A stretch of 56,599 bases of DNA, counting the filler, from Jimgerdemannia flammicorona (lineage: Eukaryota), in NCBI GenBank assembly GCA_003990765.1. It is 2 parts of 2 records of this genome, joined end to end, with 100 filler letters (N's around TTAATTAATTAA, not from the genome) between each part and the next. Parts side by side here need not be neighbours in the genome. Positions count along the whole stretch, not along the records: positions 1 to 28,252 come from RBNJ01000576.1; 1 more part is not named here. One strand, written 5' to 3'. Below, in pieces: positions 2,761 to 51,150 of this stretch. A program made the translations under genes and the position numbers. Numbering within the stretch: position 1 is the first letter of the stretch; the number at the start of each line of letters is the position of its first letter. The notes under the pieces were generated by a model. The model saw only the letters and a program-made list of their open reading frames with translations. It did not search any database and had not been told where the DNA came from.

Positions 2761-3347
2761 AGGAACTACAGCTCTAGGATTTGGAGCACACAGTGAGTAG
2801 AAGGATACCACATATTTATCTGGAAACATATAATACTAAACATTGTGAAAAAAGGAATACTATAGATAACCAACAAGAAAAAGGCCAAGTAACAGACAGT
2901 CTAGTATAGTACAGTAAAATACATTAGAACAACTCCATTTCATGCCATCTGTGTCATCTCCGCTGGATGATGACGAACACTTCATATGGAACTTAGGAAA
3001 GCTGATGATGTCAAAACCAGTCTAAGTCTATCTATGTGACAGATATTGTTACTAGGAATTACCTCAGATTACAAGAAAAGTCTATTTCCAAGAGGTTTGG
3101 ACCCCCAGCCATAGCAATGGGAGCCCTCGCTCTAGACAAGGATGGCCAGGCCTTGCAAATGTGCCAACCAGACAAAAAAAAAGAGGACTAAGATCTGTTA
3201 ACCCTGTGTAACCACAACTACAAGTGATGATATCTTCGAAATCAGAATTTTCTTATGTGATCAGCATATGCTCTGCTTATAGCAACAGGTCATGTATTTT
3301 GTCAGAAAGTGTGACCAAAGGAAGGTTACATCAGATGGGTGAATAAG

Positions 3348-3358
3348 TATAAATACCC
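3348..3358 (+). promoter_or_regulatory. internal TATA-like box upstream of accessory ORF
   Basis: TATAAATACCC, the same motif as the LTR TATA at ~4566, ~70 bp upstream of the ORF start. Confidence 0.55.
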
Positions 3359-3420
3359 AAGGCAAGAATACTCCACAACTCTTATCCCCCTCTCCTCACA
3401 AAGAAAAAGACAAGACAAGA

Positions 3421-4251
3421 ATATCTGTCACTTGCCACCAAACTGCCTGCTATAGCCAGCCCCTCCTAAGCCAGATTGACCATCTCTTTGAATATATCCA
3501 GGTTGCTATCCAAGGAAGGAACCACCACTCAGAGGCTCTTAATCTCTCCAGCCAGGACCTAGGACATTATGTCCTCAACAACTGTGAAGTCATTGAAAGG
3601 GCCTACCTTGCCACTAGCTGCCTAGAGATCTGGCATAAATATAAGATTGGCCATCAACTCCTCCAATAGGCAAAGGACCTGTCCATAGATCAAGTCTCTG
3701 ATTGGACCCACCTGGATGGGAGCAAGCAAAGACTTGTCAAGAAGGTCCATCGAATTATATACTATGCACTCTTTGCAATCCCCAACCTCAACTATGTCTA
3801 ACTGAAGGACTTCCAGAACCTCTCCTTCTTTGAGGTTGATGAACTAGAAATCAAGATAGCCCAAGAAGCCAACTCTTGGATCACCCTCAAGTCTACTGAC
3901 TGCGAATTCTACTGGAGCCCCCTCCTAAATGACAACTCTGACCAATGGCTCTAAGGCCTCTCTGATCTCTTTGAAGGACTGCCCATCCAAATGGATATTC
4001 CCAGACATGAGGATCAAGAACCCTACTTGGATGGCCCCCACTGCATCAGATGGAGAACCCCTACACCAGTACCTATCCCAATGCAAGAACCATTTGCAGA
4101 CCTCATTGACTTCTCCATCTTAGACAGCAAGCCATCAGCAACCACCACCCTCCCTGCTACTGAAGAAGATGCCAACAACCCTGAGCAGGATTCCCCACCT
4201 TTCTCTCCTCTGGTTCTCAATTTCTCTATCAACGAGGATGTTGATTTCTAA
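3421..4251 (+). pseudogene. accessory ORF of unknown function (276 codons) between pol and PPT
   Basis: Single frame with ATA (likely ex-ATG) start and 3 internal stops; collinear with 39354-40190 (ATSCLEIWHKYKIG vs ATKCLQMWQEYEIG; IPNLNYV*LKDFQNLS vs IPNLEYIRVSDFRDLS; YWSPLLNDNSDQWL*GL vs FWHPILQDNPDQFLQGL). Confidence 0.85.
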
Positions 4252-4262
4252 GGAGGAAAGAA

Positions 4263-5046
4263 TGTAATAGAATGAGGTGCGACGAGCGATCACGTGACCC
4301 GATGGCAATGACATCATCATATGAATGAAGCATGATATATGATACGAATAATGCAAAATGATGCGGAAAACAATATCTAGCTTATCCCCAACAATTGGCA
4401 CTATAGCAACTGTTGCCACAGCTACTAATCATTGCCTAGTAATTGAGATCCTGATCATAAAGATATTCTTTACCAAAAACCACCTGACAAAGGTTATAAT
4501 TACAAACCTCATTATAGTTACTAAATTAGTCACTCATACTTAGTCAGAAATCACAGACCAACTTGTATAAATACCCCCCAGTTTTCATCTGAAATAAAGC
4601 AGTTTTAGTTCAGTTCTTGATATAAGAATCAAGTTCTCCCTCTATATATACATCCTCCTGAGTCTTAGTAATGATATCTAAGTGACCCTAATGTTTCTGA
4701 CTAAACTCCAGAAGCCTAGCTAACTTCTGCCAGAACTGAGACTGGTATATAAATCCCCAAAGACTTAAGTAAACCCATTGAATCTAAATTCCAAGGTGAA
4801 TTCAGTCTATATATAGAAAAGAATAAGACTCTCGAAATAGAGCACAAGAGAAAGACCTTTGAAACAGAAGGCAAACCTGAAAAAGATCTTTAAAAGATAC
4901 GGCACTGCTGCTACACTTACTTATAAGTGAGTGCTTCCTCAAACTGAAGGCTTCTTAGTATATATTGTGTACTAAGTCCCTAAGTAATAGTCCACTTCCC
5001 TAATTATCTAAAGGATAAGAGAGAGATAGAAGTGAGAGTTATTACA
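4263..5046 (+). repeat. 3' LTR of element A1 (~784 bp)
   Basis: TGTAAT...ATTACA termini; TATAAATACCCC and AATAAA at ~4566-4598; homologous to 22321-23076. Confidence 0.9.
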
Positions 5047-5854
5047 TTGAGCTACTAAACAATAGCTAGCTTAGGTTAATAAGGGAGCAGTGCTTGATGG
5101 GTGGTGGGGGAGGATTTTAGCCTATATAGACTAGGTTCAATTTCAATAAAAATCTATGAGACTTTGAGTCTATAAAATAAAAATAAAAAGTAGATGAGTA
5201 GATAAGACAGTGAAGATGACAATAAAAAAGAAGTTAATATGGAAAAACAAAAATATGTAAAGTGGTATTTAATATCTGAGTTCTGATAGTAATATACTGA
5301 AAATAAGTATTTGAAGAGAAATAATAGATAAAGATTAAGAAGTTAGTAGCTAGATAGAGATAATTAGTAAGAGAAGTAGTTCAAAGATAGTAATATCAAG
5401 AGAGATATAGGAGAGCTAGTATCCTGAGAAATATACTAGAAGTAGTACTAAAAAATTATAGCCAGTTATTATTAAAGAAAAAGTCAGATAGAGAAAAGAG
5501 ATAAAAATAATAATAGAGAGAAATAAGAGAAATTAGAAATTCTATAACTCTCTGTTCCATCTATCTCTAGTGCAGCTAGCTATTAGTGTAGCAGTAGGAC
5601 ACTTTGCTATAAATAGACACAGATAGATAGACTAATAAAGTACTCTAGTACTTAAAAAGAATATATTGTGAGATATTGGAAATTGAAGAATCGAAATCAC
5701 GTGGTTTTAAAAGTCTACCAAGAAAAAAAAAAAAAAAATCAGGTGGTGAAAAGATCAGGTGATGCTTTAAAAAAAGGTGGCGTCAAGGATGATATAACCC
5801 TACCTCAAAGACAACAAAAGTCAACAAAGTGGCGAAAGACAGCATCTGGCAAAG

Positions 5855-7471
5855 ATGGCAACCAATAATCCCAAAGACAATGTGGCAGAAGACAAAGATA
5901 GTCTCCAACAATTCCACGAAGGCCAGGTGATATACGTATGTAGCCAGATCACCCTTTGCAAAAAGATTCAAGACCAACAATTTTCCGTGGTTTTCAAAGG
6001 CCAGAGACTAGATGACACCCTCTGTGCAGTCAAGATAATGAAGAAAAAGAATGTTCCATCGCCTGTCGTCAATCTGATGTGGAATGAGATGTCTATGACG
6101 GACCTCGAGCATCCCAATATCGTAGAATTTTATGAGGTGGCTGCGACGAAATGTTTTATGTTCATTGTGATGGAACTTGCTGATGGAGATGTAGGTGAAC
6201 TTTTGGAGGAGACTGACCATACTGGCGCCAGCAACCAACCCATTATCTTTGACATCTTCTACCAGGTCTTTGATGCTATAACCTTCTTACATGACCGCAA
6301 AATTGCTCACCGTGATATCAAATTCGAAAACATTCTATACAAGCGAAATACAGATAAAATACGCATCTTCTTGTGTGATTTTGGTATGTCAGCAAAAGTT
6401 AATCAATCCGAGAAGATTTTCCATTGTGGGACTCTTAGTTCCATGTCACCCGAGCTGTTCGGCCCTGCGCAATCCAAATACAACCCGTTCGCCGCTGATC
6501 TTTGGGCTTTGACAATCACTCTTTTCAAGTTACTGACATTTGAAGAACCATGGACAGAGGCATCGAAGAGCAACGTGGAGTATTCGAATTATCTCACCCA
6601 CCGCGATTCCATTTTTGCTTCAACCAACATCCTCTGCAAGGATCTCAGCGAGCAGGTGAAATGTCTCCTGCTAGATGGATTGAATCCTAACCCCCATTTC
6701 CGGCCTAAAATATGCAAGTTTCGCGAAGATTTCATGGCGATCACGGAGCTGTGGACCACAAAGCCTCCCCGAAAGCGTCGTCGGTCTACTGAAATAGAAG
6801 AGCTTCCTCCCCAGAAGCGGTCGGGACGCATCTGTGCATGCTGTAAAATAGCGAGCACAACAGGGTTGGAATATCCATTCAAAGGCCAGTGGAAGAATAA
6901 TTGGATCTGCGGGATCTGCCTTAAGTCAAAGGAAGAGTTGTTGTTGATTGGCATTGGTGGTGCGGAGAAGCTTGGGTTACGCCGAACAGGTATTTACATT
7001 TTTAAGTGATTTGTGATTTGGTATGTTTCGTTTCCAAACCCATGTGATTAACAACCAGCCAATTTTTCAATCGTAGATGTCCGCCTCCTCCCACGGCTTT
7101 TAGTAGGAGTGTGTGACGATTCTGTGCCTACCTACATTTATGTTGGGCGGACTCTCATTGTCTCAGAATTAGATGTCAAGTCCATCATCCCAACCTTGTA
7201 TGAACTGAAAGACGGCAAAAGAACGGCGCAAAAATATGACAAATTGCGTTCCAAACTTATCGATAGAGTCCACAATTCCGCATTTGATATGCTCCACAAA
7301 GAGTTCACAAACGTACCGAGCCAGGTCATCCACAGCAAGATAACAGAACTATTAAATGATGCAGAGTTTCTGACTCATGTACAATCATTACCGAATGGAC
7401 TCACGTTTTATTTACCCATAGAGGTCGAACAAGAAATGATTGACAAAATCATCAAAACCATCAAATATTGA
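5855..7471 (+). CDS. Ser/Thr protein kinase (Ran1/Sks1-like features) with basic NLS-like stretch and C-terminal CxxC...CxxC; probable second exon 7077-7471
   Basis: AVK, HRDIKFEN, DFG, CGT..SMSPE, DLWAL in an uninterrupted 384-aa ORF (5855-7009); a GT..AG intron 6990-7076 would join it in frame to ORF 7109-7471 (splicing inferred). Confidence 0.85.
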
Positions 7472-7811
7472 AAATAATAAAATTGTGCCCTTGCTGAAGA
7501 CCGCCAAAGTAGATGACAGTACCAACCTGGAGGAGGAGAGAGGGGTAGGGGTGTGGTGAATAGGCTTGAGGATATGCAGACTGGGCTGAATGAAGGCTCA
7601 AGATGTTCATATGTCCGTTGCAAAAAGACAGTCTTAAAGGACAACTTACGATGTGAAGAAACCCATGGATGTCATCCCATTTCAACTTCTTAATCTTCTT
7701 CCCTTTGACAAGACCTACCACCCATTGGCAAAAAATAACAATCTTGTCAGGTCAGAGCTCCCTCACAAAAACAGCCCACCAATCACATCTCACCCAGCCC
7801 TTTTCTTCACC

Positions 7812-8640
7812 TTAATAACCCTTATAAATGCCACACACATCGCATCCTCTCGTGATCCCGATCCTAATGATAACCTTAACGCTGGCATTCATGCCTCGTG
7901 AGTCCTCTCCCTGATGTGAGGAAGCCGATCTTCCTGGGGTCGCGGTGGGCTTGATTGTGCGGTTGGCAACCTCGTGCGATAGTGGGTGTCCCACGTTCAT
8001 GAAAATTAGCAGGTTGTTGAGCAGGTCCAGCATGTACAGCTCTGTCGGGGGTTGGCGAGGCCATCTGTGGGACAGCGAGACGAGGAGGGCGCGGGTGTAT
8101 GCATTTGGAAATCGATTCCACGGTCTAAGAATGACCAGCAGAGGTTGTAGCAACGGTGTAAGATCAGTCTTATTAGAGATATGAATCAATGATCTGTTGG
8201 TCGGAACCAAGAAAAGGCAATTAAGGTTATTAAACTCCACAGGGTGCCCACGAACACATTTTTTTTTTTTTTTTCGAACACTTTCCTTTCCAAAGAAAAC
8301 GCATTTCCTGGTTCCAATCATTCTACATACCGCAAGATCCCCGGACACAGCGGCTACACTCGATTGCACCAGTCTCCAGATCCTTAATCGTCACGACTGG
8401 GTTAATCCACAGCTTGGCAGTCAAATCCTGGATAGGCAGCTTTCCGAACAGGGTGATTCAGATCTTCTTAGTGTCACCGGAGGGGGCAGCGACGGTTTGG
8501 AAGCTCCGGGTACTGTAAAAGACCAGGGCGTTGGTGTAAGCATCCGGGGTGGGGGCGGTGAGAGTGAAATGCAAGAGACCTTCAAGGATAATATAATTGG
8601 AACTATCTCATCAACCCGACAACGCCACGCGTAGCCAGCC
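7812..8640 (-). pseudogene. possible spliced gene or pseudogene of unknown function
   Basis: CpG-retaining, coding-like minus-strand frames (DAYTNALVFYSTR...K I* ITLFGKLP...CSRC; SLIHISNKTDLTPLL...) separated by a GTATGT...CAG intron-like segment (~8330-8193); no recognisable domain. Confidence 0.3.
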
Positions 8641-9348: not shown

Positions 9349-9919
9349 TAGTGCTCCAAACAAGCTGATCTGGATTAGATTCAAATCCCATCAGGATCAA
9401 TTCAAATCAACTATTGTTTTGATTTCCAAATTAGACAATTAAATGTTTACATCAATAACTCAATGAATAATTATCCAATTTTAATGATCTTGGTATCATT
9501 TGAAAGCCCTTAATAAGGCCTTTCTAATGATATCAAGAATATTGAAATTAGATTATATATTGCTGAGGTATCAAGGAAAACATCTGACTTACCAATTTTG
9601 GAAACTATTTGACTTGCTGATTTTGGAGATTTCTTCAAAAGAACATTTTTCTTAATAACTAAACAATACATAATCTGATTTTAATATTCTTAATATCATT
9701 AGAAAGGCTTTATTAAGAGCTTTCAAATGATACTAAGATTAATAAAATTAAATAATTATTTATTAAGTTATTAATATAAAAATTTAATTATCTAATTTAG
9801 AAATCAAAACAATAGTTGAGTTGAATTGATCTGGATGGGATTTGAATCACATCTGAGTTGATCTAGATGGAAATCTAATATGAATCCATTTAGATTAAAT
9901 TAACTTATTCAGAATACTA
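9349..9919. mobile_element. foldback MITE with hAT-like termini
   Basis: Starts TAGTGCTCCAAACAAGCT and ends AACTTATTCAGAATACTA; ~210-bp inverted arms; flanks CTTATAGT / CTTATATG are a 6/8 match to an 8-bp TSD. Confidence 0.8.
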
Positions 9920-22320: not shown

Positions 22321-23076
22321 CATAATAGAATGAGTAGTGAGTAAATAGATGAGATATAATATATAATGAGTTATCATAATAATATAACTATTGATCAAGT
22401 GTGATATATAATATATGAATGATGAATGTAACAAATAATATAAATAATATAAAAAATAATATTTAGCTTATCTTTGCAATTGATACTGCAAAAATTAGTA
22501 CTAATTATTACCTAGTAATAGAGGTCCTGATTATAAAGTATTCTTGATTACAAACCACCTAACAAAGATCATAATCACAAACCTCACCATAGTTACCAAA
22601 TTAGTTACTTATATTTAATCAGAAATTATAGATCAATTTATATAAATACTCTCTAGTTTTTATCTGAAATAAAGACAGTTTTAGTTTAGTCCTTAATATA
22701 AGAATCAAGTCTCTCTCTACATATATACATTTTTCTAAGTCTTAGTAATGACATCTAAGTGACTTTAGTGTTTCTAACTAAACTCCAGAAGCCTAGCTAA
22801 CTTCTGCTAGAACTGAGACTGATATATAAATCTCAAAGACTTAAGTAAACTCATTAAATCTAAATTTTAAGATAAATTTAATCTATATATAGTAAAGAAC
22901 AAGTCCCTTATAACTATAGTTAATAAGAAGAGTACTACTGCTATAACTACTTTCAAGTGAGTACTTTCTTATACTGAAGACTTCTTAGTATATATTGAGT
23001 ACTAAGTCTCTAAGTAATATCTTGTTTTCCTAATTATTTAAAGGATAAGAGAGGGGTAGAAATAAGAGTTATTATA
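22321..23076 (+). repeat. 5' LTR of A2
   Basis: Long collinear match to the A1 LTR, differing mainly by C>T/G>A. Confidence 0.88.
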
Positions 23077-26000
23077 ACTTAGTAGTAGTAGATTATCAAG
23101 CTAAGAAGACATCAAGTATATACTCCTGAGAAGTTAAAACAAGACCAATCTTAAATAGAAGTAATCCCTAGAACTAACTGTGGATTCTCTGAGAATAAAT
23201 CTCTAAACCAGAGTCAGACAAGTTATTGCTATTAAGACCAGATGGTATTAGGATATATATTACTAACCTAGGAATCTGCTAGCTAGTAATTGATCAGATA
23301 TATAGAGATCTATATCAGATCTTTAGAACTTTCCACTCAAGTCTTAGGAATGCAGTCAGCCACTATAGGTTCTGTATACTTCTCCATAACTATATTGGAA
23401 CTATTAGAAATCAAGAATCTACTACTGTAGTTGTCCAGAAATTTCTATATTATATCTCACCCCCTACAGTAAGAGAAGTAGCTGCTGAGTAGATTGCATC
23501 TAACAGATACTATTATATATCTACCAGAACCTCTCTCTACTACAGACTAGTTATTGTCTATGTCTCTGTCATAATAAGATATGAGAATAAGCAAGCAGAC
23601 TACTCATCTCTTACTGTTGATCAAGAAGTAAGCTCATCTACTCAGTCAGAACTTAATATTTTTTTTAAAGAATCTAGTCAGTATAAGGATATGCTATCTC
23701 ATCAGAGAAGAGAGCCAGATGAAGACTCTATAGAATACCAGTCTGATAATAGCCAATAGAGAATAGCAGGCTGAGAAATTTACCAAGGATCCACAGATCA
23801 AGAAGACCAGACTTCAGAACCAATCCAGCCACCTATACAGAGGTTTGGTCTATCATCTCTTATAGGACTTTTTTATCTAATCTTTGGGAATCAAGTAACC
23901 CTAAGTTATATAGTACTATAATCTTATCAGGCAGAACAATCTTTAGGAGAATCTACTCCCATAGGCCCATTACCAATAGTTAACACAATGATAGATATCA
24001 ATATTATAGTACTCTGTCTAGCTAGCCACACTAGTAGAGATAGTAGGACAAATTACTGAATAGTACAAATTAATCAAGACCTTATGAATTTCTATATTCA
24101 GTGAAAAAAACAGTGATATTGAAACCTTCATCAATGCAGTTGATACAGGATATCAAGTAAACTAATAGAATAATAACTAAGTATCTATAGAGATGCTCAC
24201 CATCAACTGAGATAATACCCTTCAACAGATATTTACTATATCAGTAGCATAAGTGGAAACAGTAGTAATATCCTTCACTAAAATAGTAGCCAAGTTCTAG
24301 TATATCCTAGAAGAATACTCAGTAATCTAAAAAGACTGTCCTCAAGTTACAGGTCAAGTATCTGACTATACCAGACCAGATTGAGATGACTATGCAGTAA
24401 GTAGGCCTAGAACTCAAGACTCTACAATTGACTAAATTCCAAAATACAGCTTATATATAAGAAATTTAAAATAAACTAGCCCAGATAAAGTTTCATAAGA
24501 ATGACAAGAAGGACCTAGAAACTTTTGCCACTAGGATAGATGCCTATCTTAAAACCATTGGACTTACCTACCAAGAAAACAATTTGGTCATCAATTTTAC
24601 TAGAGTCAACCATCTCTTTGCAACCCTACCAGACTAGCTCACCTAGAAGATAAAGAAACAAGACCTCTCCTAAGGATATTCCTACTACTTATAGTGCTTT
24701 GCCCAAGTACAAAAAAGAGCCTATGAAATCCTTACTACACAGATCCAACAAAATACAGAATACAAAAAGGTTAACCAAGATAGGAGAAATTCCACTAGAA
24801 GAAATGATCAAAGGAATAATTAGAGGAATGACCAAAGGAACTAGCAAAACCCCAGAGAACCAAGACTCCCTTCTGAGAATGAAAAGAAGCAGCTTTGTAA
24901 AAAATAATTATACTTTATTTATAAGAAAACAGGATATATCTCAGTCAGATGCCCTGAGAAGAGAAATAGATTAGGTAAATCTAGTAATCAGAATATCACT
25001 GTTATTGGAGAAGGTCTAGGAAAGAAGAACTTGGAGAATATTATCAAAGTACAGAAGATATAGTATAAGACTACCATCTCTACTAAGACCCATCTCACTG
25101 ATGCAGGATATGACTTCTATAGTACATAGCCAAGATCTCACCACTCCACCAAATACCAATGCTATAGTGTGAACTGGGATTGTAATATAAGCACCCAAAG
25201 GAATATATATCCATCTTGCTGAGTGAAGTATCCTGGTCAAAGAATTTAATATTAGGCTAAATTGACTAAAGATTTACTAATGAAATCTATATAATCTCAC
25301 AAAATTTTGAAAACACCTCATTTGAAATCAAAGCAGGCCAAAGAATTGCCCAAATAATCATTGAAGAAATTCATCAAGATCTCACTATCAAAGAAGTCTC
25401 TGAGCTCTTTCAGATAGACTATAGTAAGAAAGAGTTTGGATCAATCAATAAACCCCTCAGTCAAAAGATTATCATAATAAAGAAAGATGATGAAAACTGG
25501 TACAAGTAAATTACAGATAGTTATATACTATGTATATGGATAATACCCTCATTCTATCTAAATGTATTATATGAAATATATTGATAAATACTATGCATAT
25601 TTCTCCAAAGTTTTCAAAATCAATTCTGAAAGATACTAAGCCTAACAGACTGAGGAATCCAAACAAGACCACTCCTCTTGTAAAGAATGGGGAGAGACTG
25701 ACTTTGAAGAGACTGACAGCCATTGGAACAACAATGAGGATAAAGAGCTCAATACTATCAAGAAGGAGGACAGTTGCATCAAATTCATAGGCCAAGTTTA
25801 AGTATAGAATATCAATGTCTTACTGGACAGTAGTACTACTGAAAACTATATTAGCACCAAGACTGCCAAGAGGATTGGAGCCTAAAGCAGATCAGTTACT
25901 TAAAAAAGAAGTATTATCTTTAGTAATAGCAAGACTGCACCTTTGATCAAGATCTGTAAAGATCTATTGCTCAGAATTGATAAATATCAAAAGAAGTTAG

Positions 26001-28252: not shown

Positions 28253-28352
28253 NNNNNNNNNNNNNNNNNNNNNNNNNNNNNNNNNNNNNNNNNNNNTTAA
28301 TTAATTAANNNNNNNNNNNNNNNNNNNNNNNNNNNNNNNNNNNNNNNNNNNN
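28253..28352. other. artificial contig linker
   Basis: 44 N + TTAATTAATTAA (stops in six frames) + 44 N; flanking pieces are 28252 and 28247 bp. Confidence 0.95.
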
Positions 28353-28991: not shown

Positions 28992-29543
28992 TTCTTCATC
29001 ACTTTCTTCTAATTCTGATTCAAATTCGGATTCTGATTCTGATTCACTTTCTGAACTGTCACTAGAGACCAGGGTGCTTGGGTATCTTGAAGATGGTGTT
29101 CTGGTCCTTGGATGAGGTGGAGTAGGCCTAGGTATCCTTGTAGGAGCTACTTCCGGTTCTGCAAGAGGTTGTGGTAGGGGTTCTATTGGTGAAATTGGTG
29201 GGACTAGTGTGGGGTACCTGGCTGTGAGGTGTTGGGTCCAGGTAATAAAGTCTTCTAGATCTTGTGCAAGTTCTCCAAAATCTCCAGCAGGGCTGCCTGT
29301 GTTGTCTGGTTGATCTGGTTGATCTGGTTGAGGATTTTGGGCTGTACTGCCTCCTGCTTCTGGTTGAGATCCTTCTGATGCTGGGTAGTTGGCAAGTCTT
29401 GAGGTGATTACTTCTCTTCCTGTCCAGATGCTAGTGATGACTGGTTCTCTTGTAGTGGCAGAGATTGGTGTTGTATCAAATGTATCCAGTTTGACTGTGG
29501 GTTCTTGTGAGCTGAAAAGTCACATCGATTTTAAAAATCCCGT

Positions 29544-35360: not shown

Positions 35361-37430
35361 TGTAAGAGGGTTGCTTTTTAGGGTAACTGTTACATAGTTC
35401 TGGAAGGGTTTTCTAGAAGTTCTGGATATTCTGGAAGACTATTTTCTTAAGGTCAAAATCAATTTCATATGGAGTACATCCTCTATACTTATTGATTTCA
35501 AGATTGGGTTGATGTCTCAATCAAAGTTCCTTTTTTGGACTAGTTCTGGATGTTCAGAATTTTCCATATTTCAGGAAGTTCAAGAAACTAAGACCAGCTT
35601 AGTTGAATTGATGTATTGCTGCAGACAATATCTAATTAGGAAATTTCATGATAGAGTTAGGAGTGGGACCTAACAGAGAGTGGATTTACTTAAGAGTGGT
35701 TTGTGGGTTATTAAATAGGTTTATTTGCTATTCATGATATTGCTATACTAGGAGTAGTTGTGTGAAGAAATATTGTGGAAAAGTGCTCAGGAGTTGTATT
35801 CAGATTGTTCAAGTCTGAGATTCTGAGGTCTGGGGGAGGGGGTATTTATACTAGTGAGGGACTATCTGGACTATGCTAAATATAGATGTAGCACTTAGTG
35901 ACTTGCTGAGTCAGAATGCAGTCACATAGTACAAGTGTGATCTGATATATCAAGAGATCATCTGACTGTTGAGTCAGTTCACAGTCACATTGTACAAGGC
36001 TAATCTAACTATACTATGACTGCTAAGCTATCTATAGATTTAGATGCTGTCTGGGTAGTCTTCAATGACATCACCATCAATGATATTATCTCTGATGAAG
36101 TAGTCATTTAGGAAGAGTTGTTCATGGATTAATTCTCCTTATTCGCTGAGATAATAATACATTGAGACTTCATCACTGTCCCATAGGATAGCATCATCTG
36201 TCTCATATACTGGGTATGGAGTTAGTGGGTGAAGGAGTGGTGCATCATCTTCACTTTCATTGGATTCGCTGTCTGCATACCTTCTATAGGTTATAGCACT
36301 ATGAGTCACAGGGTTGTAGTAAGCTGGTAGCTATGGTTCATATCACTCATACTTGGGTAGTGAGGTGGTTGGTTCATTCTCGAGGGTTGTCTGAAGATAC
36401 AGGTTGTATTCTCCTGTCTCTTTATTATAGTTGAAGTAATTGGAGGTAAATGTGAGTTGATATTTATACCAGTGGTCATTGTCCCAATAGGTCTTGTAGG
36501 TGATTATGAACTGTTGCAAGTTCATCAGTAAGGTTGGAGGGGTGATCAGGGTTGGTAGGGATCCTTAGCTTGAGATTATGTCAGTATCAGAGGGATTATT
36601 ATCTTCTACTTCATCTTTGTTAAATCAGATTATATTGTAGACATCCTTCATGATATATCTGACTTGAGGCATTTGCAGGATATGGTCATCAGGGTGCAGA
36701 AAGGTTCTGTCTGTGATCTGAATGTATTTGAGGTACTTGTGGTTAAGTTCTTATATCATATCATCAATTTGGCCATAGAACAGGGTAGCGACCATTTCAG
36801 CAGTAGTAACTCAGAGGTAGGGAATAATAGTGCTGAACTCATAGAAGAGTTCTCGATGTTTATGAGTGATGAGTTTCTGGTGTTGAGATATCTGGGTAAT
36901 GTCCATATTATGGTAGTGTTCAACCATGTCTTCTAGGAGGCAACCAATCTGGTAGTAGCTTGAGATTTATCTGATTCGGTGGGCCTCACTAAGTATGTTC
37001 AAGACATTTCATTGGGCTTTCACAAAGTAGAGAGGTGCTAGACTATGGATATTCATGAGGGGCAGAGGGGGTGTGACTCGGTTGATAATGGTATTCCAAA
37101 TGTCAGCATAGATGTGGTTGTAGATCTCAGTGGTCATATTTGTATATTTAGGAGTTGGTGTTGTATATTTGGTTTGTTTTGGTTCTTCGTTTAATGCATC
37201 TTGGTGCTTAGTATATATGTTTTTGGTTCTAATTGGTAAGATTCTGTTTGTATAAATCTTGTATTCTGTGACTTCATGTTGACTCAGCTTTATGTACTGT
37301 GACTTTGGTTTGACTTAGCTTCATGATCATGCAGGTGATTTCCAGATTTATTCAGAGATCGTGTGTGATTTTGGTGGCTTGTTCAGAGGGTGATATATGA
37401 TTTCAGTGGCTTGGAGGTTGTGCACTTACA
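35361..37430 (-). repeat. 5' LTR of element C (~2070 bp)
   Basis: Perfect 6-bp inverted termini; PBS adjacent at ~35346-35357; TATAAATACCCC at ~35839-35850; partner LTR not in window. Confidence 0.75.
36040..37137 (-). pseudogene. LTR(U3)-encoded accessory ORF, divergent family member (~365 codons)
   Basis: One frame from ATG 37137 with scattered stops: HIYADI...MNIHSLAPLYFV...YYQIGCLL...LITHKHRELFYEFSTIIPYL; motif order matches 39354-40190 and 3421-4251. Confidence 0.65.
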
Positions 37431-38875
37431 GATATGCTATTATCTCAATTCAATGAACTAAAAGAACAGTTTGCAGAGATCTCATCAAGTTTGCTGAACT
37501 TTGAAAAACTCTACTTTCTGTAGCATATTTCTGAGTCAACTCAAACATTTGGTATACTAAATAATACTAATACAGAGATAACTAATCATTAATATTATAT
37601 AGAAGTTAAGATACCATATCAATGAATAAATAAATATAATTCTCTTCTCTAAGTTATTAAGTTTGTAGAGTGCTAAATAGTACTTGAGGACAAGCTTGAT
37701 TATGTTACAACCAGTAAGTTCATAGATACCTTAAGCTCACTAATAACTGAGAAATACTAATATCTGAGTGCTCATATCTCTGAAGATACACTCTATATTG
37801 ATAAAGTTTCAAAATTTTTTGGGCTATATAATCTTAAACTTACTACTCAGATATTTTTTCATAACCTCTAGTTTGCATCTAGAAATAGATATCATTATCA
37901 AGTAAATAAGAAGAATCTTCTCAAACTTTCAAATCCAACAGTAAGTTATTTATGCTAAATCAGTCTGTGAATCTTTTTTGTAATATTTCTAATATCTCTT
38001 CTTGATCTCTGTAGATTAATATCTTTACCACTTTATCAATTGGAGTTCATAACCCATTTGTGAATATAAAATTAAATTTAGCTATATTTTGTCAACTTGT
38101 TCACTGCAAGCAACAGTTCTATAGGAGTCTATAATATGACTAGGTAGTGTTGAATAATCTCACAGATAAGTAGTTTGAGATAAGACAAGGTATAGATAAA
38201 TATCTTTTTGTCCAAGTTTGCCTTCTCTTCAAAATCAAGCAAGATCACTACGTCTATCAACTTATATACTTGGAGTGGTATAACATAGTAGATATTGAGA
38301 ATCCTAGTACTAAAAGCATAGTCTTTCATAATTGTGAGATAGGAATAACTATTGCTATATAGACTGAGTAGTTCAATATTATATTCATGAATATAATTAT
38401 TCATATAGTATATATATAACTCTTGTTTAAAAAATATGATTCAGTAAGAAAGAACTTAATAGATAGATTGAATATATATTCTTTTCATTTTTATTTAGTA
38501 AATAAGTATGCAGATCATATATTATGAGAGAAACCTTTTTTTTATTTGTAAATATATAGTTAGACTAAATAGTTAAGTATATGAATCAAAATACAATTAT
38601 ATAAACTTAGCATTACTTACAATTGTGATTGGTTTTTATTTGAGGAGTATATAGTAGTATTAGGAGTATGTATTCAATAAAAATTATATATAATATAAGA
38701 GTTTATAGATTATTAAAACCAAATCTTTATTAATATAAATTGAGATTTTTATATAGAGTATTTATAGTATTTATTATTCATAGTATTCATAGTATAGTAG
38801 TATTTATAATATAGTTTGCAGATTCATTATAGATATATTTTACATAGTAAATGTATCTCATCTTTTTATATATAT

Positions 38876-40432
38876 TGTCATGTAGTGGTCGCTGAGTCCT
38901 TCAAATATGCCAGATTCTCTTCAAGGTGTATCTCTTAGACTAACTCAAGTTTGTTATAAGCAAGTTCTTATTGGAGTACCTTCCCAAGGTCTTATAGTCC
39001 TCAAACTTCTTATCTTTAACTGTCTTGTTATCTCTTAGATTGCTTGCAAGGAAGTGTGTGTATTGCACTGAGTTGACTGACTTTATTTCAGAGGAAATAA
39101 GAGGGGTATTTATACAAAATATAATTCAATGGTTGCTAAGATATAAAGCTAAATATAAATTCCAATAACTAAAACTACTAAGTTCTAGGGCTGGCATTGA
39201 TGGTTGTACAGGTTTAGGATGCTGGCATTATTTGGTATCACATCAAAATGCCAGTGCTGGAACAATTTTGCATCACCTTAGAATATCAGTGCTGGCATTA
39301 TCCAGTGTTACATGAGAATACCAGTGCTGGCATTATCCAGTGTAACAAAGAACTTAGAGCAGAAAGTTCAGGATTATGAGGGCTTCATCATCATCATCAC
39401 TGAAATCATCATCATCACTGAAGGAGATGAGATACACGAATTTGTCATGCAGGTCACACATTTTGCATACCTCGATGTCGCATGGGATGACATCATTGCC
39501 AATGATGTCATCACATTCGGCTGTGGCAGGGAAATCAGGAACAAGGTCTGGAGCTCTCCAGTCTATGAGGTTCTCTTCCACAAAATAAGGAACAAATGTG
39601 GGGTCTTGGGGAGATCTAACCCGGATGCTTGGGCCTTGGAATACTGAGATCAATCCTTGCAGGAATTGGTCTGGGTTGTCCTGAAGAATGGGGTGCCAGA
39701 AGTCTTCTACTTCTTCACTGTTGAGGGTGATAGTGGACTGGGCTTCTGTAGCCACTCTGGCTTCTAGTGCATTGATATGGCAGGATGATAGGTCTCTGAA
39801 GTCTGAGACTCTAATATACTCCAAGTTGGGGATCGACCATGGTGTATACCTGAAGATCTGATGGATCTTCTTAGCTATCCTCATTTCATATATATCCATG
39901 GGAGTGGCATCTTGTAGCTCTTGGGTGCTGGTCTGTGGGAACTTCCAGCAGAGGAGGTTTCCTATTTCATACTCCTGCCACATTTGGAGGCATTTGGTGG
40001 CAATAGTGATTCTTGTTTCCATTTTACAGTGATAGAGGATAAAGTGATAGGGGTCTGCAGTACCCAGGTTGACACTAGGAGTCCTTCTTGAGTGGGTCCT
40101 CATGGCTCTTCTGATGTCTTGGAACATCCTTTCTTTGACTGAGATACCTTGGTGGTTCCTTGACCTTGAGGTTTGGCAGACAGCAGGCATTTCATTTGTG
40201 GTAAGTCTTTGAGCTATTTTGGGATTGGTGGTTCTTGTTGGTTACTGCTACTGCAGTTCCTTGATCCTTCTTTTATATTCTTCAGGATGCTTATACTGTG
40301 GTCACAATGACTTACAGTTGGTCATCATTGCTCATCTTGTATGCCGTATGATCTTCTTGTACTTCAATCTAGTGGCTTGCAAGGAAAGGCTGTCTCCTGT
40401 GCTGATGTCATCATTATGGGGTCACCATTACA
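38876..40432 (-). repeat. 3' LTR of D (1557 bp)
   Basis: TG...CA ends; direct repeat of 51151-52688 with an extra 18-bp duplication at ~39395-39422. Confidence 0.96.
39354..40190 (-). CDS. LTR(U3)-encoded accessory protein, 278 aa, unknown function
   Basis: Intact ORF wholly inside the LTR, upstream of the LTR TATA (~39104-39114), with TATAAAA at ~40271-40278 before it; homologs in A1 and C. Confidence 0.85.
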   Translation of the reverse strand: MPAVCQTSRSRNHQGISVKERMFQDIRRAMRTHSRRTPSVNLGTADPYHFILYHCKMETRITIATKCLQMWQEYEIGNLLCWKFPQTSTQELQDATPMDIYEMRIAKKIHQIFRYTPWSIPNLEYIRVSDFRDLSSCHINALEARVATEAQSTITLNSEEVEDFWHPILQDNPDQFLQGLISVFQGPSIRVRSPQDPTFVPYFVEENLIDWRAPDLVPDFPATAECDDIIGNDVIPCDIEVCKMCDLHDKFVYLISFSDDDDFSDDDDEALIILNFLL

Positions 40433-41434: not shown

Positions 41435-44400
41435 TTTTTTTTTTTTTTTATAGTCACTTGGACTCTGTCATTTATTATCAGTCTATAGTTAAATATACAG
41501 TCTTCTACCTACTATCCGATCTCCATAGGAGGGTCGCGCCCCACCCCAATCCCAGTAAAGGCCACCTTCTCCCCAATAACTCTCACCCTTCCCCCACTCT
41601 GCCTACAAATTTTCCCCACCAGATTGCGCCTCTGGCCCTTCTGTATCCTCCAACCAAGCCACCAGCCCATCAAGGTATCCTCCATAAGATTCTGCCACTG
41701 CCCCAGCCAGACCTCCAGGCCCAGTCTCCTCCCCTCCTCGAAAACAAATAACCAGTGTCCGGCCAGCCCTACCCAAATGGCCAGTGCCCAGCCAAGCATG
41801 AGCCACTCTATTCGCACCCCCCCTACCAGTCTGTTGCTCAAGTCCTCCCACCGCCCCCGCATATCGGAACCCCTGCCCCTCACCCCCAAAAGGATCCCTA
41901 CAGATTGCCAAAAGTCACTAAGTACCTTGCACTCTCCTAACCAATGTTCTGGCATCTGTACGTAACCCCCTTCCTGACCCACATTATAGCACTCCTCGCA
42001 GTCAAAAATACCCCCCTCGACAAGGTGACCTGAGCGATAATTGAGCATAACATTCCTCCTCAATATGCGCCACCAAGTCACCCAATACTTTGGCGGCATC
42101 CAATTTTTCACCTCAGCACACCATGCCCAGACACTCCGCCAGTCCCACTCCTCGCCAATTCCAACACCTTGCCAACCACTGGGCCACAGATCCTGGCCTG
42201 GTCTCCTCTAGCAGTCTATTCCATCACTAATGTCAAACTCAAGCAATGGGACCCCACCCAGTAGCACCTGGTCCCATCTCCACATCTCCGGGTCCCAATC
42301 CACCTCTCCTTCATTTCCCTGCCAATGGATCCCGATGCGGTGTGCTCCCTCTGCTATCCCCCACCAGAAGCCTTTAAATTGCAATTGAGCAGTGTTCTGA
42401 AGTCCAACCAAAGACAGGAGATCACCAGTTGAACCCCGAGGCGATGACTGCCTCTCCCAAACCTTCTGCAATAGGGGAACCCAGCCACCCCCTCTCAATT
42501 CTATGGCTCTCTTCAACCACCAAGCCCTTAAGCAGTATAGCCTCTTTGGGAAGTCAACCAGTCCTAGTCCGCCGCTTGCCACTAGTAGGGACAAGACCTT
42601 CCAGCCTATCTGACTCCGCCTTCCAGCCCAGATCCATCCCTTGGCAAGCTTCAACAGCCTCCTTACCACTCAGGGTGGAAAATCCAGATGGTACACCAGA
42701 TACCACAACTTCGGCAGCCAGTAAATGTTCAAAATTGTAACACACCCTGCCAGGGACAGGTGATGGCCCCCCCAGCTCCGCAGGGCCTCTCCCCAGATGC
42801 CAACCCACTGCTCCCACCAGAGCCTGGGTAGTACTGACCCATACACCGAAAGGTAGATCCCCAAGTACCGCACTGCCTCACCAACAGGGACAACTGTTCT
42901 GATAATCTCCCCACCCACCAAACCATTGCCAAGCACCATGGTTTCGCACTTATGCCAATTAAGTCACACCCCAGAATTCCTCTCATACCACTCTATTGTC
43001 TCCTTGAGCTCCTCAACATCTGCAATTGATTCCAATCTGACCACCATATCATCTGCAAAGGCCCCCACCTTCCACTCAATGCCAAAAATGGAGAGCCCCA
43101 CTATCCTCCGCCTGATTCTATCCAATAGCAGTTCCAGAGAGAGAGCATACAGAATGGGGGACAATGGGTCCCCCTGGGGTACCCCCCTGCCCAGGGGAAA
43201 GGCCACCCCACGATGTCCATTACATATGAGTGCCGCCCGACTCCCTTCCAGTAGACTGACTATTACTGACCAGAACTGGTGCGGGACCCCAGCCCTATCC
43301 AAAACTTTTGCCAGCCAACCTCGCCTCACCCGGTCGTAAGCTTTCTCCTGATCCAAGAAGACCAGTTGCCCATCCAATCCACAAGCTCATGCCCCTTCAA
43401 TAACGCCATGTATCCAGGCTGTGCCATCTCTAATGAGCCATCTCCCTACAAAGCCCCTCTGCTCAATGCCTAAGATTTGCTGTGCCACCTTTGTAGTCTT
43501 GCAACCACCACCTTAGTAACCAACTTCCTGTCCATATCCAGGAGCATTATCGGCCTCCAATTCTTCCAGTCCTCTTGCCTTCCTTTGTTCTTGTAGAGCA
43601 ATGTCACCAGCCCCAGATCCTGCTCCCCCACCCATCTCCCTATCCATAGAATAAGATCATACAGTGCCGTCATCTCCCCCAGTACCCCTGGAATCCTGAC
43701 TATCTTCTTCCAAAAATCCCAGGGCAGACCATCTTCGCCAGGCGCCATACCCAAGATTGTCGCAGCAAGAACCTGGTGGATCTCCTCCTCTTGGACTGGC
43801 AACACCAAGTCATCCATCCCATCTACCTGTGGGGGTTGCCAATCTTCTAATGCATGGCCGATCGCATCAGCATCTACCCCACCCTCCTCCTCACTCCACA
43901 ATCCACTCCAGTGCTCCTTCAAAGATCCCAGAACATCTTGAATTCCATGGACCAGGACCCCATCCGAATTGAGGACCTCCTCCCACCTTTGTTGTACTCT
44001 CCTTGCCTGCAGAGCCCTTGTGAGGAACTTAGAGGGCCTCTCTCCTTCCTCCAAACCCTGCCACCATAACCTAGCTGCCAAGCCCTTTACCCTCGCCTCT
44101 TCCTCCTCTCGCAGCACCTGTTGTAGTTCAACAATCTCCTTTTTCACTCATATGGACCTCTAATTCTCCTCTCCCTCCAACATCACTAGTCCCGCCCAGT
44201 CATCTAAGAGCCTAGACAGTCTACTAGAAGCCCATTTCACTTTTCGCCTCCTCTGTTGCCCAGCCACCTTGCCAGCCTCACTCCAGTATGTTTTGGCCAA
44301 TGCCTTCATTCGCATCCACCGAATATCAACAGGGGTACCTTCCCGCCTCCAACTCGCTATCTGTAGCTGAATGTCTGCAGCCCATCCATCCCACCAAAAT

Positions 44401-47307
44401 ATATCATCTAACAAGGAGAAATTGAGGCACTAATGTCCAGGCCCATCCCTGCTACTCCCAAACTGACCCTGTCCAATAATCCCCCAGTGATCCAACCAAG
44501 GACACCACTCCACCTCCAGTGATCTCCAAACATCCAAGCCCCAGCAGCTGGCCATCAGAATCCAATCAATTCTTGTCCCCAAACCTTCTGCCCAATGCAT
44601 ATATACCCTCCTATCCCCCCAGTACTTCCTACCCACATCCACCAGAGCACTCAGCCTTTCCACTTCCTCCTATGCCACAAGTCCTCCACTCCGACCCTCA
44701 ACTCCTCATCCACCATCTGTTCTGTCTAACAGTGCCTCCCGAACCATATTGAAATCTCCACCCAAAACATCCATTCCAGCCTCTGTGAGCATCCCACTCT
44801 CTTGAAGACTCTCCACCCAGTCTACACATTCACCTCTCACAGCGGGGCAGTAACAAGATCCCACTGTAATCAGCTCCCATCCAGTACGTATCCATTCACC
44901 CCAGACCAGTCTATTTCCCCAGCTCTGCACATTCCTAATCTCCCCTCTGCCTTTCCGTATCAGAATCCCAACCTTTCCCATCCAAACTGCCTCACCGCCC
45001 CATTCCTTCATTCATTCCAGTTTATCCAAGACCTCGTCACATCTGACATCCTGCAAGAGGAAGAGATCGGCCTCCAATCCCTTCAGCCAAGTAAAAATAT
45101 TCCTATGCTGATAAGTGCCCCGCAGCCTGTTCACGTTCAAAGAAAAAATGTTGGTTGTACTATTCATAAGGGATATTATATTGTTTCAGATGAGTCCTCT
45201 ACTGCTCCATGGCCCCTTCCTCCTGTGCCCTGTCCAGGTCGTGCTCAGCAATAACTTCAGCTTCCTCGGCTCTCTTGGCCTCCAATTCAGCCAGAATCTC
45301 AGCCATCTCCACATCCTCCTTCTCCTCAAACTCCTCACAGTACTCCACACAAGCCTCCTGCCAGAGCTGCAGCCCATGCCTCTTATTCCAACAGTGGGCA
45401 GCCCACTCACCCGCCACCACAGCCAGAGCAGCTTCCCTCTCCTTATCAACCTCATACCCCTCCTCCTCTAAGTACACTGCCAGAATCTCTGCCTTCAATG
45501 CTGCCTCTACTCCATTGCCCTGCAGGATCCCTGCCCAATGCTCATCGCTCATCGCCTGGAGGTCGGCTTCCCCCAGCTCCTCTGCCACCAAGTTATCCAT
45601 CATCCGGCATATCCAGAGCAGGTTCCCCACCTCCTTCCCTCCCGGGGTTGCTGGTCTCCCTCCATCCAACATCATAGTATCAGCCCCTACACTCGCCGAC
45701 TCATTCCATCTCTCCTCTGGGACATCTACCAATTCCTCTTCTTCAGTCACCTCTACTAATCCCCCCTTCTCCCCATTTGGTACTCCAAAGCACACTTGTT
45801 GAGCACCGCACATCAGCACATCCTCCCCTGCCCTAACTCTTGCCGCTGGGTCTCTTCTGATAAGGGGAGATGGTGAAGGTAAATCCGCCCAGGTTTCTTC
45901 CCAAACCTCAAATGTGCCATCTGCATAAGGATCCTTGCTCGGCACCTTCTCGGCCTCCACCTGCCCTCCCTCCTCGCTCCTCCCACTATCTGCAGCCCAG
46001 ACACTCTCCGTAGCCCCTCCAGTGGTCGCATCATCACTCGCCTTCCTTGTCACCTCTGCTCCCATTTTTGCCAACAATTCCTTCTGCCTCCTGTGCCCTT
46101 GAGACCTCTCCCATACCTCTTTGTTGATGCGGACTCACTTTCCTCCAACTACCTCAAGATGTGTCGCCACCTCGAATGCCTCCCATGCCTTTGCCCTCCT
46201 CTCCACCGCTCCACTCAACTCCTCCAGTACTTCCAGCAAATCCTCCTCCTCCTCCTCACTCCCCTTCACTCTCGTCACCTTGCATAAGAAAGCTCCCCAC
46301 AATATCATTGAGGGCCAGTCCCGAGCCTTCCCAGTAGCCTCCCGCCCAGCCAACCTAATCCTGACGTCCACATCCCCTGTCCGGAGAGAGGTTCCTTCCC
46401 ACACTCTGAACCCAATATCAACCACCTCGCCATACTCCGCCATGATCTCCTCGACTCTCTTCCTCATCTCTACTGTAGTAACTGTGGGTACTCCTTTTAC
46501 CAGAAGTTGCACCACTCTCGGGTCCCACCACAGACATCTCACCATTGGTACACACACCTCGCCCACTGTCATCCCTGCCTTCAAAGCCTCCTCCAGTGGT
46601 CCAGCCTCCTCAAATCCCACCTCTACCCCTTCCAGGCCCTTCAGGAACTTCACAGACACCGCACCGCTCATCTGCTTCGCGATCAGCCCCAGAACCATTT
46701 TCGCTGTCACCACCAAGCCCTAGAAACACATCATGACTGCAAATTCCGAGATCGACTTTTTGAGTAATGGAGCCATGGCCAGCCCCATCACACCATCCGC
46801 CAGGTCCCTGGTCCTCACGCCCTTCCCACTGCTCGGCTCACTCCCATCTAGATTTTTTTCCAGATCACCTGTCACACCCCCATCAGTAGTCCCCGCCCCA
46901 GCCTCTACCCCCCCTGCTCTACTCCTAAGGCCCTCCAGAGAGGCACCCCCACGAGGTTGCTGTCCTGTAGCCTTCACCAGCACCTTCCCTCCCCTCAGCC
47001 AGCTCTCCAGACCAGCCCCCTGCTGACCCTTCTTCACCTTCTCTGCGAAGCTTGCCCTGCCAGATCCTTGCCCTCCTGTTCCACCCCCTCTGCCACCATG
47101 TCCTCCCGCCAGCAGACCCCTCATACTGCCCCCCAGACCAGGGCCTCTCCCTACTTGCTGCCATTTGAACGCTCCAGGGCCACCCTGCCCAGTATGCACC
47201 TCAGAGTGCATGTTGGTTGCCATGATACTAGTAGCTTGTCTCCAGAAACTGTGTCGAAAGTGTTGCCAGAAGGTTGTGTAACCTGAATGTTACCGGAGAA
47301 AGGTGTC
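41435..47307 (-). mobile_element. L1/Tx1-type LINE D, full length (~5.9 kb)
   Basis: TSD GGTCTGTTGTGA(TTT) at 41423 and 47309; ORF1 ~47223-45199; ORF2 ~45165-41512 (FSLNVNR, GGDFN, RIDWIL, PGEDG, LDQEKAYDRV, GVPQGDPLSP, FADD, YLGI); tail AGTCCAAGTGACTATA(A)n. Confidence 0.95.
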
Positions 47308-47879
47308 CGGTCTGTTGTGATTTGCTTTGGTGTCTTGTAGCGGCAGATGATTTCTCGGTGCAGGAAGTCAGCTATAGAGAGGGCATTGGCTTCTTGTAAT
47401 ACTCCTGCCTCTATCCATTTGGTGAAGAGGTCTACAATAACTATAATATAGCGGTTTCCTGATAGTGTTAATGGTAGTGGTCCAATGATATCCATTGCGA
47501 TGTGGTGGAAGGGGATAGGCTCAATTCTTGATGACCTGAGTGCCTGGTCTTGCTGATCTTGTTTCTGTTTTTGGCACTTGTCACACCCTTTGACAAATTG
47601 GCGCAGGTCTTCTTCCATCTTGGGCCACCACATGGTTCTTCTTGCCTTGTCGTATGTGTTGGTTCTTCCTAAGTATCCTTGCTCGTGTACTTCCTTCATT
47701 ACTTGATACTTCTTGTGTTCAAGTATTACTAGCTTTCCTCCTTTTCTGAGTATAGTGTTGTCTAATTCAAACTGTTTCTAAGTCCGGTTGATGATGGTGA
47801 TTGTCCAGGGTTCGAGGTGGTTGGGCATCTTCCACTGCCTAAGATAGCTGATTAATCCATAGTATAGCTCCTTATTCAT
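47308..47879 (-). pseudogene. integrase N-terminal half of D
   Basis: HEQGYLG...WWPKM...CDKCQ (HHCC-like), MDIIGPL, VDLFTKW, PKQITTD. Confidence 0.9.
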
Positions 47880-51030: not shown

Positions 51031-51150
51031 CTTGTCTTGAATTCTTACAGGGGTAACTCTTGTAGTCAGGGTAGTTGTTGTGGGGGTTGTTCATTTTTCA
51101 GCTTGAAAGTGAGAGATTCATCTTGAATCACCAGCCAATGGGCACCAAGT

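Follow-up and report, generated by a model that had tools for sequence, protein, structure and literature searches.

An accessory gene lies before the polypurine tract of a chromovirus-type element and inside the long terminal repeats of distant Ty3/Gypsy elements in Jimgerdemannia flammicorona

A 56,599-nucleotide stretch of the Jimgerdemannia flammicorona genome (assembly GCA_003990765.1; hereafter the window) carries, at the 3' end of a chromovirus-type Ty3/Gypsy element designated A1, a dead copy of a real accessory gene (3421-4251, + strand). As the initial annotation proposed, one gene family occurs before the polypurine tract (PPT) in this chromovirus family, A, and inside U3 of the long terminal repeat (LTR) in a distant non-chromovirus family, D. 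With a probability of roughly 0.58, we infer that the gene and its own transcription unit moved as a cassette out of the U3 of a non-chromovirus element into the ancestor of A and its relative H. The window joins two contigs of the 231-Mb assembly at an N gap (28253-28352), so A1 and the D element are not physically linked, and its content consists mostly of nested retroelements. The genome gave 31 Zn2Cys6 matches above the Pfam cut-off, compared with hits in 0/14 control genomes, which agrees with a fungal host.

The accessory open reading frame (ORF) of A1 comprises 276 codons plus TAA and contains three in-frame stops, at codons 83, 127 and 178, in agreement with its first description as a decayed frame. 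It aligns with the intact 278-aa ORF of the D LTR over 214 amino acids without a single gap (73 identical, 34%; E 3e-47), which exceeds the nearly gap-free ~180 aa originally noted and includes all three peptide blocks quoted for this pair. The Smith-Waterman score of this pair is 372, whereas 2000 shuffles reach 70 at most; the similarity is thus significant, and the chance-level alignment that would have spoken against homology was not obtained. Fifty A loci were sampled from at least 150 A-type matches (30 loci including A1, and 20 with room on their contigs). The start codon, ATA in A1, is ATG in 38/50 and ATA in 11/50 of these. A private TATA box (TATAAATACCC, 3348-3358, + strand), noted in the initial annotation and presumably active as a promoter, lies 73 nt before the ORF start, and its TATAAA is kept in 48 of the 50 loci, the other two not covering the site. 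The PPT (AAGGAGGAAAGAA, 4250-4262, + strand) overlaps the TAA stop, as first seen in A1, and abuts TGTAAT at 4263; TAA directly adjoins the purine tract in 49/49 aligned A loci (50 examined). The metagenome locus L182, which represents H, has the same layout, with its stop on a purine tract before TGTAAT. The gene is conserved as a protein and under purifying selection between families, with dN/dS values of 0.16-0.23 for the pairs A-H and D-F (counted simply after Nei-Gojobori, synonymous sites being close to saturated) and codon position 2 as the most conserved position in between-family comparisons.

Upstream of the gene, A1 encodes a 5'-truncated, decayed RNase H (899-1177, + strand; Pfam RT_RNaseH E 1.5e-25) and a frameshifted integrase (1513-2732, + strand; Pfam Integrase_H2C2, SH3_Tf2-1 and Chromo) with zinc finger, core, SH3 domain (2313-2507; SH3_Tf2-1 E 2.3e-18) and chromodomain (2577-2732; Chromo E 6.3e-8), the core being located by tblastn to other elements. 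The chromodomain at the integrase C-terminus and the Ty3/Gypsy order of reverse transcriptase (RT), RNase H and integrase, which is present in full-length A elements, support the original classification as chromovirus-type. The A1 3' LTR (4263-5046, + strand) measures only 784 bp and is non-coding, with a longest stop-free stretch of 63 aa, a TATA box at 4566 and AATAAA at 4593. A-family homology stops at 5044-5051 in those A loci that are long enough to show it, and A-family 5' LTRs start at the equivalent of 4263, with unrelated flanks before them and TGGTAGCAG after. These boundaries confirm both the short LTR and the position of the ORF outside it, and an A LTR start upstream of 3421, which would have told against the proposed layout, was not found. 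Mapped against PPT and LTR, the ORF is single, internal and located before the PPT and 3' LTR in 7/7 full-length A elements fetched. A second A element in the window, A2, contributes a heavily mutated 5' LTR (22321-23076, + strand) followed by a site resembling a primer binding site, with no ORF upstream. No A copy with a long LTR was found among the 50 loci; two odd loci considered as candidates proved to be a nested insertion (L035) and the tail of a long interspersed nuclear element (LINE; L049). Nested A-in-A insertions are frequent, and one A element (L093) sits in reverse orientation inside the private TATA region of another. A target sites show 5-bp duplications in mixed sequence, and D and E insertions lie in (TA)n-like targets, as read at L003, L023, L110, L167-L168 and window positions 38860-38875.

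Placement of an ORF in U3 of both LTRs, as known for sag of mouse mammary tumour virus (MMTV), is not found in A and is found in families D, E and C. Genome searches returned at least 150 matches each for the A, D and E accessory ORFs. The intact D ORF (39354-40190, - strand) lies inside the 3' LTR of the window's D element (38875-40432), and a second, stop-broken copy (51628-52446, - strand) lies in its 5' LTR (51150-52688). Both of the 1558-bp LTRs were present in five of eight D contigs fetched, and tblastn placed the ORF in both LTRs in 3/3 elements checked. The E LTR measures 2350 bp, and the ORF occurs in both LTRs of the single complete element among seven contigs fetched. Neither D nor E matched an SH3/chromo probe. 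The metagenome locus L181, which represents family F, resembles D, and its stop is not followed by a purine tract. The ORF has remained intact in two apparent solo D LTRs (L003, L023). Tandem repeats follow the ORF in D LTRs as they do in E, where they are variable and ~120-175 bp (L143, L145, L160). In the LTR core common to A (4563-4604), D, E and F, TATA and AATAAA stand 20-27 nt apart, and the C core differs. The D element of the window has a LINE (endonuclease and RT by Pfam) inserted in its integrase at 41437-47308 and is missing ~860 bp of the dUTPase/RT region that other copies have.

The chromovirus-like family C, which matches the SH3/chromo probe at 36-39%, has LTRs of ~2070 bp with a 365-codon ORF in both LTRs in 3/3 elements; in the window, a decayed copy (36040-37137, - strand) lies inside a C 5' LTR (37430-35361). 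Comparison of this ORF with the accessory family by hhalign gave 120 columns at 19% identity (P 0.002-0.008, probability 5-13%), which suggests a doubtful distant homologue. The layout that the initial annotation ascribed jointly to D and C therefore stands for the in-LTR position, and homology of the C ORF is suggestive at most.

The accessory gene and pol give different pictures of relatedness. An RT-RNase H-integrase tree, built from elements of this genome only, falls into two groups, (A,C) and (D,E), at a bootstrap support of 100%. Pol identities are 27-35% for A-D (RT 35%, RNase H 35%, integrase 27%), 42-51% for A-C and 40-54% for D-E, and the corresponding accessory identities are 38% for A-D (gap-free), 16% for A-C and 27% for D-E, with 30% for A-E. 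The A-D accessory proteins are thus at least as similar as the pol of the same pair, whereas D-E and A-C combine closer pol with a more diverged accessory gene. Accessory-to-pol branch-length ratios, summed by hand, are ~0.85 for A-D, 1.25 for A-E, 1.75 for D-E and 4 for A-C, values that fit transfer between lineages. A free gene tree groups E with A/H/G (support 86/90; G being a further family with the gene), in line with the distribution of an untranslated region (UTR) that E, A and H loci share and that D and C loci lack.

This UTR is represented in A1 by a block (2913-3215, + strand) that is homologous to the E 3' UTR and begins at the last codons of the E integrase. The A spacer at 2913-3164 is 77% identical to the E stretch from integrase stop to PPT over 255 bp (blastn E 9e-47), and A-E spacer/UTR comparisons reach z 25-39 in 8/8 pairs, compared with z of at most 5.2 against D or C. 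Colinearity between A and E extends to about 3211, and the 3' part also matches the start of H (nhmmer E 7e-6); a UTR profile accordingly matched A and E loci and the H start, and D and C loci gave no meaningful score. The block is non-coding, as single-base indels occur in the alignment, and it must have been exchanged, because the integrases are just 32% identical as against 77% for the block. The match documents directly, in the DNA, an exchange between the chromovirus and the non-chromovirus lineage. In E, the integrase stop is followed by UTR, PPT, LTR start TGTGAC and ORF; in A, 135 nt separate the chromodomain stop from the UTR, behind which come TGTGAC without a PPT, TATA, ORF, PPT and short LTR. 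The TGTGAC of A1 (3256-3261, + strand), kept in most copies, is a possible though weak relic of an E-type LTR start, with pyrimidines at the position of the E PPT; the site reads CG in 0/47 copies, and its chance occurrence is estimated by hand at ~4%, given four GTGAY motifs in 640 nt. A purine run at 3174-3187, considered as a relic PPT at D spacing and then discarded, aligns inside the E UTR and not with the E PPT, and purine runs of 13 or more occur 3-5 times per A element. An Rfam search of 2780-5100 gave no match. The predicted UTR structure shows no convincing covariation, its double changes being mostly CpG-type transitions. At the position of 3095-3106, other copies of the shared block carry a motif (GGTTCGAACCC) that we take to be B-box-like.

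A and D are otherwise colinear, and the location of the PPT is what separates their layouts, as originally recognised. The direction then suggested, in which a PPT moved upstream of the gene and so placed it in U3, is not supported by the comparison; the reverse, in which the gene left U3 when A captured a non-chromovirus 3' end, appears probable. The older home of the cassette would be the U3 of non-chromovirus Ty3/Gypsy elements, and the common ancestor of A and H would have taken up a 3' end comprising integrase stop, 3' UTR, head of U3 and gene, either by template switching or by nested insertion and subsequent trimming. The imported PPT would have been lost and the working PPT now lies at the stop codon, so that the gene would have ended outside a short LTR. 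The UTR in A begins at the last integrase codons of E, and more branches have the ORF inside the LTR (D, E, F-like and C) than outside it (A and H). The first 70 nt of the A LTR resemble the start of the D LTR and not the D post-stop sequence (0/500 shuffles reach the score), and the TATA-to-AATAAA core of the A LTR matches the D core over 42 bp (86%, z 11.5), as if an extra 3' end had been set before an intact PPT and LTR.

Entry into U3 would start from a gene located before the PPT, as in A and H, with a new PPT arising upstream at an existing TGTGAC, loss of the old PPT and, as a result, long LTRs, for which E is the nearest comparator. A and E are indeed colinear as UTR, boundary, TATA and ORF, the free gene tree (without a secure root) sets E beside A/H/G, and the pre-PPT layout common to A and H must be old, since A-H synonymous sites are near saturation (dS 1.2-1.5). 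We nevertheless regard entry as unlikely: it needs separate events for D/F and for E, plus C if homologous, and a PPT that had shifted away should leave a trace, yet no purine run of at least 10 occurs within 300 nt after the ORF stop in D, E or F. The likeness between the A and D LTR starts also counts against it, as does the UTR, which lies directly on the E integrase stop but 135 nt behind the A chromodomain stop. Vertical descent from a common ancestor of chromoviruses and non-chromoviruses, with uneven rates, repeated PPT shifts and exchange of the UTR alone, would account for the presence of an ORF in this region in all four families of this genome examined in full and agrees with an approximately unbiased (AU) test that does not reject the pol topology. 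It would, however, require an orphan protein to be as conserved as RT in a distant pair and barely alignable in the closer pair A-C, and the known homologues amount to a handful of metagenome proteins, unlike what an ancient gene would leave; we consider it more improbable still than entry.

Several observations weigh against a move out of U3. The AU test does not reject a clade of D, F and E (p 0.177), so the conflict between gene tree and pol tree is not significant; the branch leading to E is long, the accessory gene tree has no secure root, and the pol comparison covers A, C, D and E. The A ORF is nearer to D/F (38-44%) than to E (30%), yet the UTR is near E alone, which would require either two or more rounds of exchange or a shift in rate. 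A-E UTRs are closer than A-H UTRs (64% versus 53% in overlapping columns) and may record a later exchange, in either direction, rather than the original capture. No remnant of an E-type integrase tail was detected before 2913 (z 0.0-0.2), one alignment sets the TGTGAC relic on the E LTR start and another puts it 13 nt off, and the A-D LTR likenesses are short and fall on promoter-type motifs that could converge.

The gene may form a small transcription unit of its own, consisting of TATA box, short leader, ORF and the downstream LTR poly(A) signal. A, D, F, H and C each have a TATA-like box, 65-90 nt ahead of the start codon, and an LTR AATAAA downstream, so the gene could be transcribed apart from gag-pol. 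No data set recorded as RNA was listed as holding the sequence. Contigs assembled from two presumed RNA runs span the D LTR and its ORF, but these contigs were retrieved with the same stretch, carry no strand or level and in part extend into the flanks, and we do not read them as expression. An AlphaFold model of the protein (predicted local distance difference test, pLDDT, 60.5; 26 sequences) comprises a helical core of ~210 aa and a disordered tail; the model for the C family (pLDDT 36) is unusable. The tails are acidic (13-31 D/E versus 1-6 K/R), several end in a PxxLNF motif, and N-termini are basic and Arg-rich in D, E, F and H. Pfam yielded no family for A or D, the best member-wise matches (E 0.018-0.081) being to unrelated families; PDB sequences gave no match at E 1; and Foldseek gave none at E 0.001 in PDB or BFVD, with VIA best at Z 4.9 among 48,161 chains. 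These absent matches demonstrate neither a new fold nor the exclusion of a known family. Atlas matches (unnamed, 0.89; closterovirus coat, 0.93; translation repressor, 0.92) do not reach the bar set by the tool itself and count as leads, and a basic helix-loop-helix reading of the N-terminus failed on spacing and in Pfam.

The position between pol and 3' LTR justifies the label env-like given to A1 in the initial annotation, and nothing beyond position does. The maximum 19-residue Kyte-Doolittle mean is 0.64-0.97 in A, D, E, F, G and H, and the accessory protein, which has no hydrophobic span, is very probably not an envelope protein; MMTV Sag, unlike it, is a membrane protein. An envelope or movement protein, which a sense ORF between pol and 3' LTR might suggest, is thus highly improbable, given the absence of any hydrophobic or signal-like segment, the acidic disordered tail and the lack of matches to viral structures. 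Across six LTR pairs, 653 transitions compare with 20 transversions, and 45% of CpG and 22% of CpA sites are changed, which points to a strong host defence resembling methylation or repeat-induced point mutation. Because of the putative own promoter, the acidic tail, the basic N-termini of D, E, F and H, the lack of a hydrophobic span and this mutating defence, our preference, held at somewhat less than even odds, is for a soluble nuclear factor acting in trans, which would raise or protect element transcription by analogy with foamy-virus Tas or an anti-silencing protein; the N-terminus of A, which is not basic in the measured copy (2 K/R in 45 aa), does not favour it. It is less likely that the protein acts on RNA in the manner of Rev or CERV, controlling export, packaging or translation, and has the shared 3' UTR block as its cis target. 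In favour of this are the 300 nt of non-coding sequence retained by A, E and H, the Arg-rich N-termini of D, E, F and H and, as no more than a lead, RNA-binding proteins among the language-model neighbours of the A core; against it, D has the gene without the UTR block, the UTR structure is without convincing covariation, and the Atlas matches share fewer than 170 features, with no Pfam match to those families at E 0.1.

Relatives outside this genome are few. Six and 12 proteins were recovered from a 90% database, five among 1.84 billion representatives and two loci among 366 candidate metagenome stretches, all of them unnamed or annotated as 'hypothetical'. A joint profile searched over all fetched loci gave 504 hits, with nothing new but one decayed A-like copy. 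P0011, P0022 and P0014 were not found in this genome at strict thresholds, which does not prove their absence, and no longer fused form of the accessory protein occurred among 5560 candidates, itself weak evidence.

Full-length A, C, D and E elements (L091, L100, L110, L161-L168) also encode a domain, mapped by tblastn, that we take to be dUTPase-like from its motifs. It lies in the interval from gag zinc knuckle to RT in A and C and from protease to RT in D and E; dUTPase-like stretches in the window are located at about 29200-29500 (- strand) and 24700-25000 (+ strand). Downstream of A1, a 403-aa open frame (5798-7009, + strand) presumably encodes a Ser/Thr kinase and is followed by Cys-rich decayed frames at about 7050-7900, possibly a host gene or DNA transposon cargo. 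Two long inverted-repeat structures, at 495-810 and 9378-9848, may resemble miniature inverted-repeat transposable elements.

Annotation and dating pipelines take LTRs as non-coding, and extra ORFs before the PPT are often called env-like. Here, one selected gene family stands before the PPT in some and behind it in other, deeply split lineages, and the donor UTR is still readable, a rare case in which the path taken by an accessory gene can be followed. A gene in U3 is doubled in each element and kept in solo LTRs, so defective copies could act in trans, and if the gene counters host silencing, this would help to explain large families in a heavily repeat-mutating genome. More speculatively, chromovirus and non-chromovirus lineages of this genome might exchange their 3' ends as modules made up of UTR, promoter, regulator gene, PPT and LTR core, and the gene might encode a transactivator or anti-silencing factor of a new, self-promoted class, supplied in trans even by solo LTRs against a CpG/CpA mutating defence, an early gene in the style of complex retroviruses placed across the PPT boundary; we hold this broader picture to be possible rather than likely. 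A literature search, thin on subscription journals, retrieved no paper on the accessory family and none describing a retrotransposon gene that occurs both upstream and downstream of the PPT.

Known systems, compared here through parts of the cited sources, share single features with this gene. Sense additional ORFs before the 3' LTR (aORF-3S) are described as common in LTR retrotransposons (PMC7264820), and the A gene agrees with them in being a conserved ORF of unknown origin that most copies carry, in sense orientation, in the interval from pol to the 3' LTR; it differs from those described there in lacking a transmembrane segment, in having its own TATA box and in belonging to a family that also lies wholly inside both LTRs of other lineages. 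Unrelated retroelements of bdelloid rotifers have ORF3 types in common (PMC5408684), and the resemblance extends to one type in unrelated LTR lineages, dUTPase-bearing elements and proposed template switching; in the parts of that account considered, the ORF3s are recognisable enzymes or transmembrane proteins and the wording 'within the LTR' does not occur, whereas here the donor UTR would have travelled with the gene. In fungal chromoviruses, dUTPase and unnamed extra ORFs occur according to sections of PMC2864245, and reviews cover recombination between LTR retrotransposons (PMC6894440, PMC5668417).

MMTV sag/Naf is a U3 ORF with a U3 promoter, present in both LTRs (PMC9412291, in part), and in this respect corresponds to the protein-coding U3 ORFs of D, E and C. 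It belongs to a retrovirus, has an immune function and shows no sequence or fold match, and the A gene lies outside the LTR. The foamy virus Bel1/Tas gene has an internal promoter upstream of the 3' LTR and encodes an acidic activator (PMC517496, in part); the second transcription unit, the internal promoter before the 3' LTR and the C-terminal acidic region may be paralleled here, at the level of sequence, by the conserved TATA box and the acidic tail, and no homology between Tas and the accessory protein was found. VANC of VANDAL is an anti-silencing accessory protein with family-specific demethylation through a repeated motif (PMC6719617, in part), and CERV of Cer1 is a Rev-like accessory protein (PMC10309623, in part). 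Each is encoded by a transposon and acts in trans on the family it belongs to, one in a plant DNA transposon and the other a spliced nematode protein, and in the absence of homology they are functional analogues of the role proposed for the accessory gene of A, D and E.
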